A stretch of 64,000 nucleotides of DNA, taken from contig CAZHIA010000003.1 in the NCBI GenBank assembly GCA_964532425.1, positions 5,594 through 69,593 of the forward strand, in the 5' to 3' direction. Positions 15,073-26,408 of the stretch are shown one piece after another (the first letter of the stretch is position 1; each line of letters starts with the position of its first letter). This DNA comes from an uncultured Candidatus Saccharibacteria bacterium. Its GTDB lineage: Bacteria > Patescibacteriota > Doudnabacteria > UBA920. A model generated the notes under the pieces. It was not told the origin of the DNA. It ran no database searches and worked only from the letters and a program-made list of their open reading frames with translations. A program made the translations under genes and the position numbers.

Positions 15073-15852
15073 TTATTTCACTTCAAATATCACACTCATG
15101 GTTTCGGTAATATCCTGGCTGCCAGGCTGAATATCAGGAGCGATCGATTTGGCTTCATTCATCGCCGCTCCGCCCCTACCGGCCGCGTAATCCATGGCGT
15201 ATGGGACCGGCCCTGGAAAACTCGTATTAGATTCGGAAACGCTCACGATCTTCCCGAGGGTTAAACCTGCTTCGGAAGCGAGTTCCTGCGCTTTGGTTTT
15301 GGCATTGGCAATAGCCTGTTTGCGGGCTTGCTGCTTGAGATTGTCAGGATCGTTGAAGCTAAAGCTGACATTCTGGATCTCATTCGCTCCGTTATTAACG
15401 GAACCATCCAAAATGGCTTCCAATTTTGTCTGACCCTTGTCAATATCGTGAACTTTAACCGTTACGGTCTGATTGCCCTGGTAGCCGATAATGCGTGCCG
15501 TGCCATTGCTCCAGTCTTGCTGCGGATAGAAGTTGTATTGGGACGTCTTAATATCTTTGGCATCGATCCCTTGCTGTTTGATGAACTCAATAACTTTGTT
15601 AACCTTGGTATTGTTCTGGTCTTTAACATCCTTGGCCGTGGTCCCCTGGGACATGACCCCGATGGTTACAGTAGCCAGATCCGGCGTAGCCTGCACCTTT
15701 CCATCAGCTGAAACAGCCATGGTCTGGGCCGGTTTCCTATTCTTGATCTTGTCATTCAAATCCGTCCCTTTTTGGACAATCAAAATGGCCACAAAAATAA
15801 CGAGTAGTGCGCCCAGGGTGACAACAAGCCACTTTGGCAAGGTTTGATTCAT
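15073..15852 (-). CDS. SIMPL domain (DUF541, BP26/YggE-like) periplasmic protein
   Basis: N-terminal TM/signal (WLVVTLGALLVIFVAILIV), then a beta-rich domain whose pattern resembles SIMPL/DUF541 proteins. Confidence 0.5.
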   Translation of the reverse strand: MNQTLPKWLVVTLGALLVIFVAILIVQKGTDLNDKIKNRKPAQTMAVSADGKVQATPDLATVTIGVMSQGTTAKDVKDQNNTKVNKVIEFIKQQGIDAKDIKTSQYNFYPQQDWSNGTARIIGYQGNQTVTVKVHDIDKGQTKLEAILDGSVNNGANEIQNVSFSFNDPDNLKQQARKQAIANAKTKAQELASEAGLTLGKIVSVSESNTSFPGPVPYAMDYAAGRGGAAMNEAKSIAPDIQPGSQDITETMSVIFEVK

Positions 15853-15972
15853 ACAATCTTTCGCTGATACATGGATTGCGCGGAGAATGCCGGATCCTGT
15901 ATCAAATTAATTTCATTATAATTATACGCTACCACAAGCAAAAGGTAACTGTGTATAAAGCGACATAAACCA

Positions 15973-18900
15973 TTATGAGATTGCAATAGTTTTATTGAGC
16001 ACACCTTGCTTGCCGATCGTAACTTGCCCTTCATACACCAATACTGCACGATCTTCGGAAATCTCCTTTACTTTAAGCAGATATGTTCCCGGTTGGCTCT
16101 TGAGGAAGAAAACCCCGTTCGGTTTTGTAACAGCTTTACCCATGACAATAGTGGGGAGAGCCACCGGAGAGAGCTCTAAATACAATCCGCCGACATCTCT
16201 GCTGCCGGCCAGACGACCGAGCAATCTCGCATGGGGAACGACCTTCCTGAGCACAGCAAGCACGACATACACTGCCAGGAATAATCCATTGAGCCAATTT
16301 GGCCTCATTGCAAATACCAGCAATGTCCAAGCCAGCCCCGCCCAAAAAACAAGCTCCAAAGTTATATTCAATATGTGCTCGATGCGGGGATGGAATTTGA
16401 CGATCCTTTTTTTGTCTTCCTGGTTCCAATCAAAGGCCTGCTGATCCATCGGAATATTCGGCGTCAGTGGCGCAGAACCATTGCGAACACTCAATTCTTC
16501 CCCATGGTAGACATTTTCATAGATGCCGTCACTTGATCCTGCCACGTGCACGGAAGGGAAAGTGTAGTTAGTTTTTCTTGCCCGGATTCGGTACAGTCCC
16601 GGCTTATCGAGGAAACCAAACTTCCCGTAGAGATCGGTAATGGCATGATCCACTTCTTTACCGGAACGAACGTCTATTAAATCAACCAATACCGGATCGA
16701 GCGGCTGCTTATTCTTACTGTCATAGACCGTTCCCCAATGCCGCCGGCGGGCACGTATTCCAAGCATGCCGAGCAGTCCATACACCAACCGAAGGAAATA
16801 CAGCCAGATGTCAGAAGCGCTGCCGGCATTCATGGACAAACCATACGTCGAAAGTGATGATTCAAGAGTTAACGTAGTCGGCGCAATAGCAATAGTGGCC
16901 ATTCTTGATGTCAATTCCATTGATCGCAGCTGCGGCATAGACACTATACCGGTTCGACCAGCGGAAATTTTTTCGCCCAGTTGCCGAACCACGTTTGAAG
17001 CAACACTGGTGATTCCTTCAAGAACCGGCGATATTGGAGTAACTGGCGATGCAGGAATACTGCCGGAACCACCAGAAGGCGGCTGCTCTCCAGGTATCTG
17101 CTGAATTGGCGTCGAGGATCCGGCCTGGCTTCCAGGCAAAAGGTTGCCAGTTTGATGAGGAGGATTTTCTGCAGGTGCCACCGGCGGCTGTACCGAGTCC
17201 GGGTCACGGTGAGAAGCGGGTTGATTGCTGACCGGAGCCGGCTCAGGCGGCAGCGGTACTAAGACAGGCTCCCGACCGGTATCTGTCGGCGGCACTGACG
17301 GGGTTTGAGGAGGAGCTTGTGAAACCGGCGGCGTCGCGGGTCCACCACCTCCCCCGCTCGGTGGATTCTGAACAGGTAAATCGCAAGCCGACGTAGTAAT
17401 GTCTAGAGCAGGAGAAAAACCGGTCTCCTGGGCATTAGCATTCCTCGCTTTAACATGGAATTGGTAATGACTGTTGCATGCCAGCCCGGATACTGTTGTG
17501 GTGGTCGCAGATATCCAAGAGGTCGTGGTGCTTGCCGTCATATTTTCGACCTGATATTCCGTCCCAATCGGATTTCCATTAGCATCCCATGTTAGCCCTA
17601 CCGCAGTAGCGGTAACCGTTGTCGTCGAAACATTTCCCGGGACATTCGCGAGCGTGTACGCAAACACGTCCGGCGCATAACCGCTCGTATTGTTTGCGTT
17701 CGTGACGATAGCGTAAAAATCGTACTGGGTATTTGGCACCAGGCTGGTACTGAGCCAGCTTGCGTTTGATGTCGTAGCGCTGCTGCCGGCTGTGGTTCGG
17801 TTAAAGTAGCGGTATGGTTGAGCAGCCAGTCCATACGCTGCATCAGCTGAGCCGGTTAGAGAAACACTAACCGAACTTGCAGTTACCGCAGAAACAGACA
17901 GCGTGCCTGGAACAAGTGAGGTGAGGTTTTGAAATAGAATCGAGTCAGTTACCCTGCCCGAGCTCTGGCCTGAGCCATTCAGGAATTTTGCATAAACCGA
18001 ATACGTACCATTTCCGCAGCTCCCCAAATTTTGGCAAATATCCCATGACTTTGTCGTTACATACGACTCAGGAGTCGCATCGGATAAGTCAGGTAAATTG
18101 GAAACCAGCATCAGCGTGGTTCCCGGCTGACCGGTAAGCTGGAGCGTAACATTCCGAGTCGACGTGATCGGGTCGTTTTGGTTTACATAAACACTGAAGC
18201 CCAGCGTTTCACTGCCTGAAGCCCACGGATCGAATGTGCCTCCCCCGCCAGAAGCAGCAGCTCCTTGAACTGAAACCTGACTGCTCAGCAGTGCTTCGCC
18301 GACATTTCCCGCATTGTCGAACACTCTAACTTTATAGTGGTACGTACCCGCTGGAAGGTTAGTGTCCGTCCAAGTTGTTGCCGCAGTAGATCCGGAGTTG
18401 TCCCAATTATCCGTATTGGAAAATACATACGGGGCAACACTCAATCCGGATTCAGCATCCTGGGAACCCGAAACAGCAATCGTAACAGAACCAGTACTCG
18501 TGCTGACTAAGGACAACGTTCCCGAATTCGGTAAAATAGTATCTATCCTGAAGGCAACCAGCCCATTATTTGCCACAGACCAAGGAGATTCCGCCCCTGC
18601 CTGATCCAAAGTTTTGACTCTCCAATAATAACCACTAGCCGAATCCGGCAGGACTTGCGCGCTTGAGCCGACGGAATAGAAACCGGATCCGGCATTTTGA
18701 CCGACGACAAAAGTTTTATCCCCTTGCGCGGCAAGAGCAGACGTATAGTCCACGGACAGTCCGCTAAAATCACTCGTCGTGGAAATTTGCATGCGGTAAC
18801 CGACTAAATCGGACGCGTCCGGATCAGTCAGGTTAAAATGCAAATCCGGTTGAGCAAGATTTATCCAGCTCCCATTGACCAACGGGCCGTTACCGAGGTA

Positions 18901-21900
18901 TGCGGGACTGTTTGGATTTTGATTACAGGGGGAAGCCGGCGGACTGACCATTGCGCTGTACGCGGTTTCGACTCCGTCATGGTTGCGGGCTTTGACGTGA
19001 AAAGAATATGAGTTTCCACATGACAAGCCGGCAAAAACAGTGCTCGTTGCCGTAACCCAACCTGAATTGGACGTAGCACTTGAGTTCTCGGCATAATATT
19101 CGGTTCCAGGAGGGTTTCCGTTCGTGTCCCAGGTTAAACGGACCGATGTGGCAGAAAGTACGGTCGTAGTGGCATTGGTTGGAATCTGTGCAGCTGTATA
19201 AATACTGCTCGTTGCGGTACTTGCCGAATTACCGGCGATATCAACCACCTGGGATTGAAACACGTATTTGGTGTTCGGCGTGAGGCCGCCACTGGTCCAC
19301 GTCGCGCCTCCCGGCGTACTCGTCGCCGAATTCGTCAGGTTGATAAAGTTATACGAAGCTATCCCGGAAAGATTATCCGAAGCTCCGGACACCACAACAT
19401 CCACATGGTCCGGATTCAGCCAATTAAACGTAATGGAACCGGGGTTCGGAGGAGTCGAGTCGAGTTTGAATGCTATACTTCCCGAATTAGCAAGGCTAAA
19501 CGGTGACGTTCCGCCGTTGCCATCAATCGCCTGCACCTCCCAATAGTACGAGCTATTATCGGACAAAACCTGCCCAGGCCCACCAATAGCATACGTTCCT
19601 GTACCAGCCAGCTGCCCCACGGTGAAACCATAGGAACCCTGCGGATTAAGCGCTGACGTGTAATCGAGCTGCGAAGAAGAAAAATTACTATTGGTATCTA
19701 TCCGAATGCGATACTTCACTGAATCCGCCCCATCAGGATCAGAAAGGTTGAATGTAAAATATGGGGACGTACTTGCAGTCCAGGTATTGGTCACGAACAG
19801 GTTCGGACCAAGCGAGCTCGGCGAATTCGGCGCATTGTTGGGAATGCCGGTGGTAATGGTTTTGTCTGTTCCATAGACCGACCCCTTTAAGTTCATGGCA
19901 AACATACGGACATGGTAGGTTGTTGACGGAGCCAGTCCGGTTAATGACGAAATGAAAGTCCCGCTCGCATTCGTTATCCCATTGCTCGCCACAGAACCGG
20001 CAGTGTCATACAACTTAAACTCCGCAACAGCGGTATTTCCGCCCCCGTTATTCGCGGAAATATTTAAACGATATTTTGCGTAAGGCGTTGTGTTGACGAA
20101 ATTAAAAGAACGCGATTCTCCATTTGCCCAGCTGACTTGGTTGGAAATTGATTGCAAGCTCACCCAAGCGCTTCCGTCCCATGCTTCAAAAGTCCAGTTG
20201 CGAGGAGAGTCGCCGCCGCCGGAATAATTATTTCCGGTTATCGTATACTTGTTGACGACAGTCGAAACAGGAAAATCGTATTCTAAATCATAACTCATCC
20301 CTTGGTTGGATGACCAGTATGTGTTCGGATTACCATCAAAAGCATTTGAGGCAGAACCGATGTTTGCTTTTGACGCGGCAGCGGTACCAGTCTCAAGAAT
20401 AGCCAGATTTACATTCGGCACGGACGGGTTTGGATAGGTTGCCCACACGCTCCCGTAACCAGTGATCTGATAAAATGGTAAATCTAAAATTGTGCCGTGG
20501 CCAGTGGCGGTTGTAGACAGAATGTCGGTAACGTCATCGGAGGTGACACTCGGTACTGACGCCGGATAGAGCGAGCCAGCCGCTCCAGCGCCGTAACCAA
20601 CCCCTCCGGAAACACTGCGTGAGACGCTGTTATTATAGACGGAGCTTAACACTGAAATCCTACCGCCGCTTCCACCACCGCCGTTATTGCAACCGTTCCC
20701 CCCGTTTGAAGTTAAACTACCGGAGCCGGCAAAGTTTGTGGTGGTGATGAAAATACTCCCGCCGCTTCCACCACCCGGACTCCAACAATTGAATGCGTTA
20801 GAACCGTTTGCAGAAATTACTCCATCAACGGTAGTTGTGCCGGTTACACTGAAAATCGCCGCACCGCCACCCGCACCACCTCCGTCATTCGAACTGCCGA
20901 ACTGACTTGAGTTCCCCCCACCACTCCCAAGATCGACTGGATTCACCAAGGACCCATAGGGGCTACCAGCATTCACCGCAGACCCGTTACCACCAGAACC
21001 ACCATATGACCCTCCGGCATTATTGTCACGAGGAGTTATTTGGGAGGTTCCCGGCCCCTGCCCGCCGACGTATCCGCGGCCGTTAACGTTTACCGAACCA
21101 CTGCCGCTTACGGTAAGGTTTCCGTTTACCTGCCAATTCAATTTATAGAGACTCGCCGAACCAGTTGTGGCGGTTGTGTTATACGCATGGGTCAACATAC
21201 CGTCAATTGTCACATTATTATACGTTCTACTCGCACCCAGTGCCGCCACCACAAGAGTTGTGCCCGAAGGGATTGTAATGTTCTGATTCTGCCTCAGCAC
21301 CGCAAGGTCACCACCACTGTCAACAACAGTGCCGGACCAAGTCAGGGACGAATAGGAGAACGATGTGCCCGATTGCGCGTAGTATGCCGAGTTGCTTAAG
21401 ATTGTCAGGACAGTTGATGTAGATGAGGATCCAACCAGGTAAACGGCTGCATTATTTTTTAGAGTCACACTATCCATCACAAAAACAGGCAACGGAGTCT
21501 TTCCATACCCACGCTCGTCTGTCGCACCAGATGAATTCAGGTTGTTGTTATCGAGAAGCAAGTCTCCATTTGCTTGGGCTGCGGCTTTCTTGTACAGCGT
21601 TCCACTGCCGCCATAGTTTGGCCATGTGGTTCCGCTGTAATAGGCATAGCTCACCGAAGACACATCTGTCGTGTACTTTATCGCAATACGACCCCCGCTC
21701 CCGTTACCAGAGGCGTTTCCGCACGCATTACCGCCACGCGCGGTGATTGCACCGTTACCCGCCAGAGTTCTCGTCACCACATTAACGCTTCCCCCGCTGC
21801 CGCCACCGGCATCCCAGCAGCTAAACGCATTCCCCCCATTAGCAGAGATAGCACCACTGACGGTCGTAGTAGCCGCTACGTTCAGAATGATTGAGCCTCC

Positions 21901-24354
21901 GCCGCTCCCGCCACCATCGTTCGAACCGCCGAACGCGGTAATATTACCACCGCCGCTCCCGAGATCGGTAGGGTTAGTTATCGAACCGTATGTACCGGTC
22001 GCATTCACCTGGCTGCCGTTTCCCCCACTGCCTCCATAGGAGGCCCCGGCATTAAAATTGTGCGGCGTTATTTGAGCTGTCCCCGGACCATATCCTCCGG
22101 TAAAACCTTTCGAGTCAGCCGAAATAGAGCCGCTGACAGTTAAGCTGCCGCCAATATTTGCATTAATCCTTCCTCCGATTGTGCCCGAGGTTGCAACACT
22201 GTGAGTAACTACTGCTCCGGAATATACAATAAAATCCCCGTTTGTACTTAATGGCGCAGACAGGGCGTCATAATTAAAATTGAGGACTGACGCAACCCCT
22301 CCACCCACGACTCCGAGCGTCAGTGAGTTTATTGCAGTCGGACCGTTTATATTGACAGTCGCAGCTGACGCTATCACCGCATCATCTGTTGGTCCAGGGA
22401 CGCTACCGCTGCTCCAGTTTCCACCGTCTTCCCAATTATTCGTACCTGCCCCGCCGGTCCATGAGACCGCTGAATTATAGGCATCGGCGCGAACTCCACC
22501 AAAATCAAAAACCATGTGATGATCTCCCGTACGGAGGTCAAGAAATTTTACGGTAGCCACACTATCACATTGCCACTGGGGAACGTACACGGAATGGTCA
22601 GGACGCTCCTGGACACTAACCGCCTGATCGCCGCAGGCCAAGCTCTCAAACTGCATATCGGCCACGGTATCCTGATCAGCCGGCGAGATCACTAAGTCGG
22701 AAACTCCCGTGGTCATGAATTCGATATCCCAATACTGACCAGTTATCGGATGGGAATATACGTTCAGTACCGAAATTTCTACTGTCGGGTCGACAATGAC
22801 CGGATACGAGGCATCCTTGAGCCACTCGGCGTCCGGGATAACAGTGAGCAAATTATTCTTAAGCTTTAGTTCCAGCTTCTGGCTGACACGGCCAGCACTA
22901 TCGCTCATTTGTGGAGCGGTGATTGAATACAGTTTGTAGAGCGATTGGCCGAGATATCCTTTTTTGTAGAGGTCAATTCTGTTTGGTGAAGCTTGAAGGA
23001 AGTCGTAAGTATCCATATTCAGCAAATACCGGAATTTACGGGGATGGTGAGAATTTTTCAATACAATAGATTCTTTCAAACTTCTTGCAGAGATGTCGTA
23101 CTTCACATCAGTATTCTCAAAAACATCCGAATACGTTACCGTATCACCGGACCTTGTTCCACCTGCTGCTGCCCGAGAACCAATCATAAGCATGGACAGC
23201 ACACTTGGCGCTGGCGACGACCCTTCCGCAATGGTAATCGGTTGTGACAAATCACTCGGTAAGGCAACGTCCGCGGTTTTGGTGGAACGGTGGATCAGCG
23301 AAAATTTCTGCTGGTCTCTGAGTCGATCCTGCAGTGTGTCCGAATTCTGCACTACCCCTTCCTCAGCGACCGGTTCAGAGTATTCGGCTTTAATTTTAAC
23401 TCCATCGATGGAAAGCAGTGCATCGCTCTCATCTCCCTCTCGTAAGGAACCGGGAATGAATCGCATACGAACAGTACTGCTTCCAATTTTCGTCAAAAAA
23501 GGACGAGGAAGCTCATATTCGATAAAGCCACCCATGGCGGCGTTGGAAAATCCGCCATCCAAATTGACCACTCCTGCTTTTTTCCAGGTCTGGTCCTGGT
23601 CAAAATATTCGACTTGCAACTTGGCACCAGGCAGCGGTACAGAAGCCATCGAAATATCAATCTTTAACGTTCGTAGGTAGTCAAGATTTGGAAGGGTTGT
23701 CGAGGAGTCCTCCTGGTGAAAACCAGAAAATTCAAGATCGTAGGCAGTGGCAGAATCCTCCTGGTTTTCATTCGGACTTTGTGTGACTGATGGCTCAGTT
23801 GTGGTTGCTAATACGGACGACTCCGAGCTGCTCGGAGCGGCCTTGTCATCAGAGACGACAGGGTCTGAAATTTGTGGCACAAGATCTGCGCCAACCTCTA
23901 CCGGACCAGAACTGGCAACAGTACTTGTCGCAGCGAGGTTTGCCAATTCTGATTCAATACCAAACGCCTGAACAGCCTGAGTAACATCATCCCCAGCAGA
24001 AGATTTTTCTTCCAGATTGCCAAGAAAACTCAGCTGAGCAGAATTCGACGAAGTAAACATTGATGAATCAGCGTCTGCACCAAGCTCAGTTACGAGAGCA
24101 TTATTTACATTCTTCCAAGCAAATTTTTGGCCACCAGCCCCTGCTACTGCGGTCACCACTTGCGGAACGAATCGCAAGCTGTACAGACTATTGTTTTGGT
24201 CACCTGGAGCGTCAGATTGGCTGGTCGTATCGGCTTTCACGAGGATAACACCAGACTGAAATAATTGCGCAACAAAAAAAACGGCCACCAGAATTCTGGT
24301 TGCTAAAACGGCTAACCTGGGGTAAGTTTTATTTCTGGTTTTTATCAGTTTCAA
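15973..24354 (-). CDS. giant secreted/surface protein (2793 aa) with signal peptide, Gly-rich beta-helix-like repeats, FN3/Ig-like repeats, F5/8 type C (discoidin) domain, Pro-rich stalk and C-terminal TM anchor region
   Basis: N-terminal MKLIKTRNKTYPRLAVLATRILVAVFFVAQLF. Repeated GGSGGNGS / NGGNAFSCW tracts. NAFDGNPNTYWSS discoidin-like motif. Duplicated ~110-aa modules (SSLGPNLFVTNTW... / AYLGNGPLVNGSW...). PPSGGGGGPATPPVSQAPPQTPSVPP linker. C-terminal hydrophobic helices and a carboxypeptidase-regulatory-like segment (VLVDLIDVRSGKEVDHAITDLYGKFGF). Confidence 0.85.
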   Translation of the reverse strand: MKLIKTRNKTYPRLAVLATRILVAVFFVAQLFQSGVILVKADTTSQSDAPGDQNNSLYSLRFVPQVVTAVAGAGGQKFAWKNVNNALVTELGADADSSMFTSSNSAQLSFLGNLEEKSSAGDDVTQAVQAFGIESELANLAATSTVASSGPVEVGADLVPQISDPVVSDDKAAPSSSESSVLATTTEPSVTQSPNENQEDSATAYDLEFSGFHQEDSSTTLPNLDYLRTLKIDISMASVPLPGAKLQVEYFDQDQTWKKAGVVNLDGGFSNAAMGGFIEYELPRPFLTKIGSSTVRMRFIPGSLREGDESDALLSIDGVKIKAEYSEPVAEEGVVQNSDTLQDRLRDQQKFSLIHRSTKTADVALPSDLSQPITIAEGSSPAPSVLSMLMIGSRAAAGGTRSGDTVTYSDVFENTDVKYDISARSLKESIVLKNSHHPRKFRYLLNMDTYDFLQASPNRIDLYKKGYLGQSLYKLYSITAPQMSDSAGRVSQKLELKLKNNLLTVIPDAEWLKDASYPVIVDPTVEISVLNVYSHPITGQYWDIEFMTTGVSDLVISPADQDTVADMQFESLACGDQAVSVQERPDHSVYVPQWQCDSVATVKFLDLRTGDHHMVFDFGGVRADAYNSAVSWTGGAGTNNWEDGGNWSSGSVPGPTDDAVIASAATVNINGPTAINSLTLGVVGGGVASVLNFNYDALSAPLSTNGDFIVYSGAVVTHSVATSGTIGGRINANIGGSLTVSGSISADSKGFTGGYGPGTAQITPHNFNAGASYGGSGGNGSQVNATGTYGSITNPTDLGSGGGNITAFGGSNDGGGSGGGSIILNVAATTTVSGAISANGGNAFSCWDAGGGSGGSVNVVTRTLAGNGAITARGGNACGNASGNGSGGRIAIKYTTDVSSVSYAYYSGTTWPNYGGSGTLYKKAAAQANGDLLLDNNNLNSSGATDERGYGKTPLPVFVMDSVTLKNNAAVYLVGSSSTSTVLTILSNSAYYAQSGTSFSYSSLTWSGTVVDSGGDLAVLRQNQNITIPSGTTLVVAALGASRTYNNVTIDGMLTHAYNTTATTGSASLYKLNWQVNGNLTVSGSGSVNVNGRGYVGGQGPGTSQITPRDNNAGGSYGGSGGNGSAVNAGSPYGSLVNPVDLGSGGGNSSQFGSSNDGGGAGGGAAIFSVTGTTTVDGVISANGSNAFNCWSPGGGSGGSIFITTTNFAGSGSLTSNGGNGCNNGGGGSGGRISVLSSVYNNSVSRSVSGGVGYGAGAAGSLYPASVPSVTSDDVTDILSTTATGHGTILDLPFYQITGYGSVWATYPNPSVPNVNLAILETGTAAASKANIGSASNAFDGNPNTYWSSNQGMSYDLEYDFPVSTVVNKYTITGNNYSGGGDSPRNWTFEAWDGSAWVSLQSISNQVSWANGESRSFNFVNTTPYAKYRLNISANNGGGNTAVAEFKLYDTAGSVASNGITNASGTFISSLTGLAPSTTYHVRMFAMNLKGSVYGTDKTITTGIPNNAPNSPSSLGPNLFVTNTWTASTSPYFTFNLSDPDGADSVKYRIRIDTNSNFSSSQLDYTSALNPQGSYGFTVGQLAGTGTYAIGGPGQVLSDNSSYYWEVQAIDGNGGTSPFSLANSGSIAFKLDSTPPNPGSITFNWLNPDHVDVVVSGASDNLSGIASYNFINLTNSATSTPGGATWTSGGLTPNTKYVFQSQVVDIAGNSASTATSSIYTAAQIPTNATTTVLSATSVRLTWDTNGNPPGTEYYAENSSATSNSGWVTATSTVFAGLSCGNSYSFHVKARNHDGVETAYSAMVSPPASPCNQNPNSPAYLGNGPLVNGSWINLAQPDLHFNLTDPDASDLVGYRMQISTTSDFSGLSVDYTSALAAQGDKTFVVGQNAGSGFYSVGSSAQVLPDSASGYYWRVKTLDQAGAESPWSVANNGLVAFRIDTILPNSGTLSLVSTSTGSVTIAVSGSQDAESGLSVAPYVFSNTDNWDNSGSTAATTWTDTNLPAGTYHYKVRVFDNAGNVGEALLSSQVSVQGAAASGGGGTFDPWASGSETLGFSVYVNQNDPITSTRNVTLQLTGQPGTTLMLVSNLPDLSDATPESYVTTKSWDICQNLGSCGNGTYSVYAKFLNGSGQSSGRVTDSILFQNLTSLVPGTLSVSAVTASSVSVSLTGSADAAYGLAAQPYRYFNRTTAGSSATTSNASWLSTSLVPNTQYDFYAIVTNANNTSGYAPDVFAYTLANVPGNVSTTTVTATAVGLTWDANGNPIGTEYQVENMTASTTTSWISATTTTVSGLACNSHYQFHVKARNANAQETGFSPALDITTSACDLPVQNPPSGGGGGPATPPVSQAPPQTPSVPPTDTGREPVLVPLPPEPAPVSNQPASHRDPDSVQPPVAPAENPPHQTGNLLPGSQAGSSTPIQQIPGEQPPSGGSGSIPASPVTPISPVLEGITSVASNVVRQLGEKISAGRTGIVSMPQLRSMELTSRMATIAIAPTTLTLESSLSTYGLSMNAGSASDIWLYFLRLVYGLLGMLGIRARRRHWGTVYDSKNKQPLDPVLVDLIDVRSGKEVDHAITDLYGKFGFLDKPGLYRIRARKTNYTFPSVHVAGSSDGIYENVYHGEELSVRNGSAPLTPNIPMDQQAFDWNQEDKKRIVKFHPRIEHILNITLELVFWAGLAWTLLVFAMRPNWLNGLFLAVYVVLAVLRKVVPHARLLGRLAGSRDVGGLYLELSPVALPTIVMGKAVTKPNGVFFLKSQPGTYLLKVKEISEDRAVLVYEGQVTIGKQGVLNKTIAIS

Positions 24355-24755
24355 AATAATATTCGCCTATTTCCTATATATTTATTATAACAATGTTACG
24401 TCAAATTTTCGAAAAAAATTCAATATTTTTTATAAAAAATATATCAAAAATTTCAAATCTAAAGACATTGGTAATATGAAAAAAGTTAATGTGATATTTG
24501 TGACGGATTTTCATTTTACAAAACTTTCTTATCATTTTGCTCGTACCGCATTTAAAGTATAGTACTTTTTTATTTCACCCTTCATTCATTAATCAAATCT
24601 GATCTGATTTAATTGCAGTAAATCTCATGATTTTAGCTATATGTTATCCACATAAATTTATAAAATAGTAATTCAGGGTAGGGGTACTTTTGCGGTACGG
24701 GATTGACGGTTGACCCATTCTAATTTTCATTGAACTCTTTTGAAATCAATCGATA

Positions 24756-24784
24756 TTGACTTTTAATGTTTGAAGCTCTATCAT
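24756..24784 (+). promoter_or_regulatory. sigma70-like promoter: TTGACT, 17 nt spacer, TATCAT
   Basis: TTGACT at 24756-24761 and TATCAT at 24779-24784 with a 17-nt spacer, in a 450-bp AT-rich divergent region. Followed by the AGGAGG RBS of the small gene at 24807. Confidence 0.5.
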
Positions 24785-24806
24785 ACCAGGATACTAAGGA
24801 GGCTCC

Positions 24807-25049
24807 ATGGATTATCAGGCTGAATATGACCGCCTGCAACAGGCATGGGACGAAGCCCTTGACCGGGTCTACGATACCAATGAACATACCAAAGTCGTGG
24901 CGTTCACCCAAGACCATCGCGCAGTAACGGACGTTGCGATATACCTGGAGGACAATCGGGCAAACCTAACCGTTGAAGAGACTTTCTTTCTTCAGGTAAC
25001 TGTTGAGCTTCGCAAGGTTGCGCAAAAGATCAGGGAACACAAATCGTAG
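24807..25049 (+). CDS. hypothetical small protein (80 aa), paralog of 25373..25603
   Basis: Strong SD AAGGAGG 7 nt upstream. Weak but consistent similarity to the convergent downstream ORF (DEAL, V.F.QD, YL.DN..L blocks). Confidence 0.6.
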   Translation: MDYQAEYDRLQQAWDEALDRVYDTNEHTKVVAFTQDHRAVTDVAIYLEDNRANLTVEETFFLQVTVELRKVAQKIREHKS

Positions 25050-25303
25050 GACTGGAGGATAATGTGGCAATATGCAATAGGAGCAATGACACGGAAGCAT
25101 AGAAACGGGCAACAACGATCTGCCGTGCGATAGTCCCGCAGGCGACCGTGCCTTGTTCAATCAGGCAGGTGTTGACGGCCCGGTAACAGGAGCCGAGATC
25201 AAACAGCATTTCCTCAACAGCTCTCCCGAGCCGATCCGAACCGGCAAAAAATCAATCCCCGCCTCCAGCCTGCCCGGCCGGCGCTCAGCCGATTAAAAAT
25301 CAA

Positions 25304-25340
25304 ACGACCCGAAATGCAATTTCGGGTCGTTCTTATTTTG
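25304..25340. terminator. bidirectional rho-independent terminator
   Basis: Hairpin ACGACCCGAAAT/ATTTCGGGTCGT with T-runs on both strands, between the two convergent small paralog genes. Confidence 0.65.
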
Positions 25341-25372
25341 TCATTCTCGAAAGAGGCTGGGGTTCATGAAAG

Positions 25373-25603
25373 TCATGGCGACTTGACTGCAATCTTATGA
25401 TACTCGTAGGCCGCACTGAGCATGTAGATTTCCCCATCCGACAACGCATTAACGTTGTCAGCCAGATAGTTGCCGATCGCTTGAGGATCAGTACGATCCT
25501 GTACAAACACAACGGCGGAAGAATCAGGTTTGGAACTCCTGGCACCTCTGAGCGCTTCATCGTACAGCGTTTTCAATAATTCAAGCTCCTCTTCTCGGGT
25601 CAT
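25373..25603 (-). CDS. hypothetical small protein (76 aa), paralog of 24807..25049
   Basis: SD AGGAGG upstream of the ATG. Shares conserved blocks with the 24807 protein. Confidence 0.6.
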   Translation of the reverse strand: MTREEELELLKTLYDEALRGARSSKPDSSAVVFVQDRTDPQAIGNYLADNVNALSDGEIYMLSAAYEYHKIAVKSP

Positions 25604-25770
25604 AAAATCCTCCTGTGGCTGTGCGCATTTTACTCGATTTTACGTACCTCGTCAAGAATATTTTACCAACCCTTGGGTATTGAAAAGTTATCGGACCACC
25701 TTGAAAGAAATAGATGTGCAGTGGATAGATGGATTGCCAGGTTTTAGACATGCCTTACTCGGAATTACCT

Positions 25771-25800
25771 GCAAATAAAAACACCCCTATTCGGGGTGTT
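25771..25800 (-). terminator. rho-independent terminator after rpsI
   Basis: Hairpin AACACCCCTATTCGGGGTGTT followed by a U-run on the minus strand. Confidence 0.6.
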
Positions 25801-25838
25801 TTGATCTGTGTAATCTGCGTGCAGGAGTGATCTGCGAT

Positions 25839-26408
25839 CTAGCGTTTAGCCCACTGCGGGGAGCGGCGAGCTCTCTTGAGTCCGGGCTTCTTGCGTTCCT
25901 TTTCGCGCGGGTCGCGGGTAAGGAAACCGTTCTTCTTGAGCACTTTGCGAATATCATCAGAGAGGCCGGCAAGCGCCATGGAAATACCGTGGCGCAAGGC
26001 CTGGGCCTGGCTGTGCGGACCGCCGCCGGAAACGTTGGCCGTGAAATGAAAATCACTGGCCAGACCGGTCAACTGGAACGGTTTTAAAGCTTCTTCACGA
26101 TAGAAAGAGTAGCCGAAATAATCCTTGAGCGGTTTCTTGTTCACGACCGATTCCCCTTCTCCGGAGAATAATCGCACGTTGGCGATGGAGGTCTTGCGGC
26201 GTCCAGTCGAGAAAATATACTTGTCCTTGGACAAGTGCGGCTTTACGGCAATCACTGGAGTCTCGGCGACGGCAGCGGCTGCAACAACCACTTCCTTTTC
26301 CTTGGCCGGCTCTTTCTTCTTTACGGTGCGCGGCTTGCGCGGAGCCTTGGCTCCGGCGGCTGCGGTTTTCGTAGTCTTAGTTGGCATAATACTTAGTACA
26401 TGTGACAT
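25839..26408 (-). CDS. rpsI: 30S ribosomal protein S9 with Lys/Ala-rich N-terminal extension
   Basis: C-terminus GFLTRDPREKERKKPGLKRARRSPQWAKR and core YIFSTGRRKTSIANVRL are canonical S9. About 55 extra N-terminal residues rich in K/A/P. Confidence 0.9.
   Translation of the reverse strand: MSHVLSIMPTKTTKTAAAGAKAPRKPRTVKKKEPAKEKEVVVAAAAVAETPVIAVKPHLSKDKYIFSTGRRKTSIANVRLFSGEGESVVNKKPLKDYFGYSFYREEALKPFQLTGLASDFHFTANVSGGGPHSQAQALRHGISMALAGLSDDIRKVLKKNGFLTRDPREKERKKPGLKRARRSPQWAKR

Follow-up and report, generated by a model that had tools for sequence, protein, structure and literature searches.

Two small convergent genes from an uncultured Candidatus Saccharibacteria bacterium (GenBank assembly GCA_964532425.1) belong to a protein family that has gone unannotated; what they represent is a new family, and not a new kind of system. 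The genes, here termed A and B, lie in a 64,000-nucleotide stretch of contig CAZHIA010000003.1 (positions 5,594 to 69,593 of the forward strand; hereafter the window, with coordinates counted from its first letter), and on the evidence of their sequences they are true genes and true paralogues of one another. The family itself is real but rare: as delimited by sequence searches, it is an undescribed acidic domain of approximately 70 amino acids (aa) with a sparse and patchy distribution. The two genes and their putative expression signals are as follows.

24756 to 24784, plus strand: promoter-like site of gene A, TTGACT-17 nt-TATCAT, matching 10 of 12 consensus positions (a consensus match only)
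24797 to 24802, plus strand: Shine-Dalgarno sequence of gene A, AGGAGG, as read in the sequence, with a 4-nt spacer to the ATG
24807 to 25049, plus strand: gene A (protein P0001), 80 aa, a canonical family member; profile score 95.9 bits, predicted local distance difference test score (pLDDT) 94.2, codon score 0.23, isoelectric point (pI) 4.9
25302 to 25332, both strands: bidirectional intrinsic terminator common to A and B, with a 13-14 bp stem, a 3-nt loop and T-runs on each strand
25373 to 25603, minus strand: gene B (protein P0002), 76 aa, the family member that has diverged furthest; profile score 35.1 bits, codon score 0.31, pI 4.6
25609 to 25614, minus strand: Shine-Dalgarno sequence of gene B, AGGAGG (CCTCCT on the plus strand), as read in the sequence, with a 5-nt spacer to the ATG
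25627 to 25655, minus strand: promoter-like site of gene B, TTGACG-17 nt-TAAAAT, matching 10 of 12 consensus positions

An earlier note on this DNA had placed both open reading frames (ORFs) at these positions, with an AGGAGG ribosome-binding site in front of each and a bidirectional terminator between them, and all of these elements are present: both Shine-Dalgarno sequences can be read at the short spacings given above, and the terminator stem is flanked by T-runs on both strands. The genes converge, with 323 bp between their stop codons, and the terminator hairpin lies 40 nt past the stop of B and 253 nt past the stop of A. The -10 hexamer of the promoter-like site ends 22 nt 5' of the ATG in gene A and 23 nt 5' of it in gene B. 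With a promoter-like site and an AGGAGG sequence apiece and a terminator in common, A and B are, to judge from these signals, two independently transcribed, monocistronic genes. Nearly all of the long ORFs in the window run on the minus strand, and gene A is among the very few plus-strand genes; it would therefore be transcribed head-on to its neighbours.

The same note had described A and B as diverged duplicates sharing the blocks DEAL, V-F-QD and YL-DN--L. These blocks correspond to invariant columns of the pairwise alignment (D15, E16, A17 and L18; V31, F33, Q35 and D36; Y46, L47, D49, N50 and L54), and BLASTP yields a gapless alignment of the two proteins that spans 61 aa with 31% identity (E 2e-8). 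When 19 other domains of the family were made into a profile, with A and B excluded, and this was run on the 827 six-frame ORFs of the window, it recovered exactly these two proteins (E 5e-29 for A and 4.7e-10 for B) and matched no other. The codon usage of both genes is also gene-like; true in-frame gene pieces of the window score 0.30 +/- 0.10 on the same scale, and out-of-frame pieces -0.50. Beyond the window, two homologues that are linked to gyrB in different samples share 88% protein identity, with a synonymous divergence (dS) of 0.53 and a nonsynonymous divergence (dN) of 0.061; the resulting dN/dS of 0.12 indicates that the family is under purifying selection.

The membership of the family was established with profiles. 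Word-indexed homology searches with A and B returned only A and B themselves, and a scan of genome contigs with A gave no match. A profile of A and B run against 1.84 billion cluster representatives, in contrast, recovered 18 further proteins, at E-values from 2.6e-11 to 4e-4, and a search with a domain profile added one more cluster, for a family of approximately 20 clusters in all. Among the relatives are HEV8601002.1, a hypothetical protein of a Patescibacteria group bacterium, and those referred to here as P0003 to P0026. Their consensus motif reads W-x-EA-x-x-R ... FT ... YL-x-x-N/H ... L-x-PEE-x-FFLQ-x-T-I-E-L-R-K, and the mean net charge across the family is -5.7 over some 75 residues (A, -6.2; B, -5.4). 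The domain can be embedded in different architectures: some members are 164-201 aa long and bear a helical N-terminal extension, the phage form has a Cys-rich N-terminus, and P0020 is a single chain in which the domain occurs twice in tandem. A and B share with these relatives the domain of about 70 aa, the motif, the acidity and, by alignment, the all-helical pattern. They differ from them in that two separate, convergent copies occur only in this genome, in that B lacks much of the motif, and in the extensions and tandem duplication that relatives may bear.

The earlier reading that neither protein falls in a known family also holds up. Searches of NCBIfam, PADLOC, PHROGs and PDB sequence profiles gave scattered, inconsistent and sub-threshold matches only, and the best match in Pfam was DUF7432 (PF24211), whose score of 14.3 bits (E 0.052) falls short of the gathering cut-off of 27. 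The similarity to DUF7432 is weak and local, aligning residues 3-40 of A with profile positions 80-110. Membership of A in DUF7432 was rejected, given a score below the gathering threshold and weak matches in only two of the 20 family members. Absent from Pfam, NCBIfam, PHROGs and PADLOC, and with no relative in Foldseek searches of PDB and BFVD, the family could be given a new entry of its own as a domain of unknown function. At present it amounts to another family of hypothetical proteins in an accessory region, which helps annotation and is not in itself surprising.

The AlphaFold model of A (pLDDT 94.2; predicted template modelling score 0.84) consists of four helices, at residues 3-24, 29-36, 40-49 and 56-79. 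When this model was compared with PDB and BFVD by Foldseek, no match reached E <= 0.001, and the best had an E-value of about 1. Generic helical bundles such as leptin, de novo designed bundles and DUF1311 are alike in topology, with TM-scores of around 0.5, but every Foldseek match has an E-value of 0.85 or more, and so offers no evidence of homology. The conserved positions fall mostly in the hydrophobic core and in helix-capping boxes (FT-x-D and L-x-PEE); a stripe of conserved polar residues is nonetheless exposed, made up of Q63, E67, R69 and K70 on helix 4 together with R20 on helix 1. The proteins are cytoplasmic, and neither sequence contains a signal peptide or membrane segment. The features of a helix-turn-helix (HTH) regulator are likewise absent: no HTH family was matched consistently, both proteins are acidic in pI, and the short third helix (VTDVAIYLED) is itself acidic.

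Within the family, A and B occupy quite different positions. A has a mean identity of 34% to the other members, its closest relative being the phage protein P0003 (44%), and carries the motif in complete form (WDEALDR, FT, YL and L-T-VEE-T-FFLQVTVELRK). For B the mean identity is 22%, with P0004 (31%) and A (29%) the nearest to it. Of the motif, B retains DEAL, F, YL, L, E and K and nothing else; R20, T34, FFLQ, T65 and R69 have all been replaced, as has the PEE capping box. At their present divergence, the sequences are compatible with duplication in situ and with two separate acquisitions.

The genomic contexts in which relatives occur are diverse. In a Patescibacteria lineage represented by three loci (L010, L011 and L098), the homologue begins 4-5 nt past gyrB and precedes secE-nusG-rplK, and a fourth locus (L012) has the same downstream secE. 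In six contigs (L004 to L009), the homologue lies 4 nt past the NAD-dependent ligase gene ligA. Other homologues are found between genes for LemA and an M48 peptidase (HtpX), 3' of groES-groEL; in front of a PAS-domain gene; past a gene for a TPR protein, with pyrF further downstream; convergent with a SWIB-domain gene; and in front of a gene with an alanyl-tRNA synthetase-type domain. Finally, homologues are present in three related phage contigs carrying T4-type neck and gp15 genes and a tail protein gene, where they sit among small overlapping genes of unknown function. Two of these contigs also encode, near the family member, an ADP-ribosylglycohydrolase-family protein (L013, 6421-7266; L101, 1400-2245). 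The family thus evidently occurs in Patescibacteria-type bacteria of the Candidate Phyla Radiation (CPR) and in at least one tailed phage. Because the contexts vary so widely, guilt by association yields no single answer; the close linkage to gyrB and ligA should be taken as a lead, and not a result. That linkage, and the joint occurrence in CPR bacteria and tailed phage, provide concrete, testable leads in a group of which hardly any small proteins have been characterised.

In the window, the pair sits in a region that appears to be specific to its lineage. On one side it is flanked by rpsD, rpoA, rplQ, rplM and rpsI, and the best matches of RpsI (61-65% identity) come from metagenome-assembled genomes of Patescibacteria and Candidatus Saccharibacteria. 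In the closest relatives, L018 and L019, the order rpoA-rplQ-rplM-rpsI is followed after only some 105-115 bp by a SIMPL-family gene, with a sugar transferase gene coming next in L018. In the window, 9,986 bp separate rpsI (ending at 25839) from the SIMPL gene (starting at 15852), and A, B, an AT-rich region and a giant surface-protein gene therefore form a lineage-specific block:

15853 to 25838, no strand assigned: lineage-specific block of approximately 10 kb, from the SIMPL gene to rpsI, containing the giant surface gene, the AT-rich region, A and B
15973 to 24354, minus strand: giant gene encoding 2,793 aa, with FN3, F5/8-type-C and Ig-like domains identified by domain search
24355 to 24806, no strand assigned: AT-rich divergent promoter region between the giant gene and A, 452 bp, 22-30% GC

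The suggestion that A and B belong, jointly with the giant surface gene, to an accessory region is therefore well founded. The block is most simply read as a putative insertion. No integrase, tRNA gene or flanking repeat marking the block was found, and its GC content and codon usage look native. The pair as such was not found elsewhere: two copies of the family occur only in this window, every other locus is single-copy, and none of 80 rpsI-centred loci from other genomes has a family member nearby. Two further contigs from Logan that carry B (L001 and L002) are 100% identical to the window.

What the proteins might do can be approached through what they lack as well as what they conserve. 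We tentatively favour the reading that A and B are small, non-enzymatic, cytoplasmic modulators that bind protein, possibly pairing with each other; it is plausible and leads the explanations considered here, at rather less than even confidence. With no catalytic-type motif and a net charge of about -6, the proteins of this family would be neither enzymes nor DNA binders, the acidity in particular arguing against DNA binding. The conserved exposed residues on helices 4 and 1 look more like a binding surface than a catalytic site. The proteins would therefore most likely act by binding another macromolecule, probably a protein, in the manner of a small modulator or adaptor. The tandem-domain protein P0020 suggests, further, that the domain works as a dimer; in this genome the canonical A and the diverged B may form a pair, or B may complement A. 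The loss from B of R20, T34, PEE, FFLQ, T65 and R69 would then reflect a different binding target or the role of a partner subunit.

Several observations weigh against this interpretation. No partner or target of A or B emerged from the analysis, and the contexts of the relatives differ without a constant partner among them. Dimerisation depends on a single tandem-domain protein, whose single-sequence model (pLDDT 58.6) is too poor to show whether the two domains pack against each other. The structure model is of A only, with the helix pattern of B carried over from the gapless alignment; the model was moreover built on an alignment of two sequences, and small helical bundles are often predicted with too much confidence.

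It is also possible, though unlikely, that A and B are phage-derived cargo resembling morons: self-contained units acquired horizontally and active in phage-host conflict, for example in anti-defence or in relation to superinfection. The pair would in that case represent two acquisitions. In favour of this reading, each gene has its own promoter and terminator, both are located in a lineage-specific block of about 10 kb, and the family is sparsely and patchily distributed; the closest relative of A is, moreover, a phage protein (P0003, 44%) and not B, and the phage copies are conserved in three contigs. However, no integrase, phage or transposon genes adjoin the pair, no flanking repeats were found, and GC content and codon usage are host-like. 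PADLOC and PHROGs gave no match, nor did 50,697 annotated phages (searched by tblastn) or IMG/VR, and the chromosomal homologues are stably syntenic with core genes.

A second explanation takes the gyrB and ligA linkage at face value, and holds that members of the family act on DNA enzymes as modulators, for instance by mimicking DNA or as an accessory subunit of gyrase or ligase, the acidic helical surface either imitating DNA or binding the DNA-handling face; on this view, host DNA metabolism would be the target of the phage copies. A homologue starts 4-5 nt past the stop of a DNA enzyme gene in two independent lineages (gyrB in one, ligA in the other), the gyrB linkage is retained across homologues that are 88% identical and have a dN/dS of 0.12, and another homologue converges on a SWIB-domain gene. 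The uniform acidity of the family would also fit, as would the location of phage copies among small genes of unknown function. Ocr, Arn and DMP19 are DNA mimics and AsiA is an anti-sigma factor, and all act by binding protein. The likeness of the family to these proteins—small, acidic, helical and non-enzymatic, with phage and bacterial copies, some of them linked to genes of DNA enzymes—is one of analogy only, since no sequence or Foldseek similarity connects A and B or their relatives to any of the four. On net charge, and on net charge only, A and B show the strong acidity of a DNA mimic. Against this explanation, the context is DNA-related in only two or three of approximately ten distinct cases, which could arise by chance in tiny, gene-dense CPR genomes (rough p of about 0.07); in the window the pair adjoins ribosomal genes and a surface protein, and not DNA enzymes; and no known DNA mimic appears among the Foldseek matches in PDB and BFVD or the PDB profile matches. 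On balance we consider a role in modulating DNA enzymes quite unlikely. A more specific version, in which a new CPR and phage class of small acidic proteins binds DNA enzymes (gyrase and NAD-dependent ligase among them) and adjusts their activity, perhaps by mimicking DNA, with A and B forming a heterodimer of altered specificity in this genome, is improbable.

A third explanation would make A, B or both accessory to the giant surface protein, as a regulator of its expression or a cytoplasmic chaperone. All three genes fall in the same indel of about 10 kb. The 452 bp from which A and the giant gene are divergently transcribed have a GC content of 22-30% and include a perfect 20-nt palindrome. 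Yet no giant surface gene adjoins any relative whose (short) context is readable. The acidity of A and B and their lack of a recognised DNA-binding domain also speak against such a regulator, and the lack of a signal peptide or membrane segment in either protein is a further point against the explanation, which we regard as very doubtful.

The remaining two explanations are already contradicted, and each is highly improbable. A toxin-antitoxin or other addiction module might be suspected from two small adjacent genes in a variable region, but the genes are convergent, separated by a terminator and not co-transcribed, the proteins are paralogues rather than two different partners, all other loci are single-copy, and known toxin and antitoxin families in Pfam, NCBIfam and PADLOC are unmatched; gene orientation and the single-copy relatives contradict it. 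That one or both are chance ORFs and not genes, as their shortness and the self-only matches of word-based searches might suggest, is contradicted by profile homologues from many unrelated samples, purifying selection in a homologue pair, gene-like codon usage, canonical expression signals and a confident fold prediction.

Between A and the terminator lies a spacer in which a further small gene had been proposed, a 23-aa short ORF (sORF) with a GGAGG sequence of its own. The features of the spacer are listed here.

25050 to 25301, no strand assigned: GC-rich spacer (GC 0.585) with no recognised element
25062 to 25133, plus strand: 23-aa sORF with a codon score of -0.29, in the frame of A; probably not coding

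The ORF exists, starting at 25062 rather than at 25063 as first given, but that it is a real gene is not supported. True in-frame pieces of 23 codons score 0.26 +/- 0.15, with 96% of them above 0, whereas the sORF scores -0.29; its GGAGG (25054-25058) is merely 3 nt from the ATG; and it is in frame with A, four codons past the TAG stop of that gene. The only other contigs with the locus are 100% identical to it, so that comparison carries no signal. Readthrough or recoding of the TAG of A into the sORF was considered and rejected: TAG ends 10 of 29 long ORFs, and the tail of A is of the usual length for the family.

Nor does the spacer contain a recognisable RNA. Rfam returned nothing at E <= 1, and the spacer sequence was not found repeated elsewhere in the window or in the loci examined. 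A structured RNA was rejected as well, the z-score of -3.3 on the minus strand falling to -1.2 and +0.4 on the two strands once the terminator hairpin was excluded. The simplest reading is that the spacer is a 3' untranslated region of A, approximately 250 nt in length. Within it, CUGGAGG (25052-25058, including the putative Shine-Dalgarno sequence of the sORF) is perfectly complementary to CCUCCAG at 25266-25272, about 210 nt downstream, and the two are paired in the predicted fold of the 3' untranslated region, a fold that as a whole is no better than those of shuffled sequences. A 47-aa ORF with a TTG start (25153-25296, plus strand) has a codon score of 0.22, like that of a gene, and no convincing ribosome-binding site; an ORF antisense to A scores 0.225, so the score does not discriminate for the 47-aa ORF.

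The remaining observations concern neighbouring parts of the window. In translation, the giant gene shows an N-terminus resembling a signal peptide, repeats rich in Gly and Ser, a Pro-rich linker and hydrophobic segments at the C-terminal end. In none of the five closest relatives was a homologue of the gene found up to 6 kb from rpsI. The AT-rich region contains a perfect 20-nt palindrome, ATATTTTTTATAAAAAATAT, at 24423-24442, which could be an operator of the giant gene or a chance occurrence in AT-rich DNA. A second indel relative to L018 (14119-14936) lies between the SIMPL gene and the sugar transferase gene, which are approximately 480 bp apart in L018; it contains an ORF with a GIY-YIG nuclease domain (138 aa) and an unannotated ORF of 104 aa, and may be a small insertion of a mobile or homing-endonuclease-like kind. 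Ribosomal protein S9 (25839-26408, minus strand) has an N-terminal extension of some 68 aa with a high content of Lys, Ala, Pro and Glu in front of the Pfam S9 domain at residues 69-189; part of this extension is aligned by several of the closest Patescibacteria homologues.
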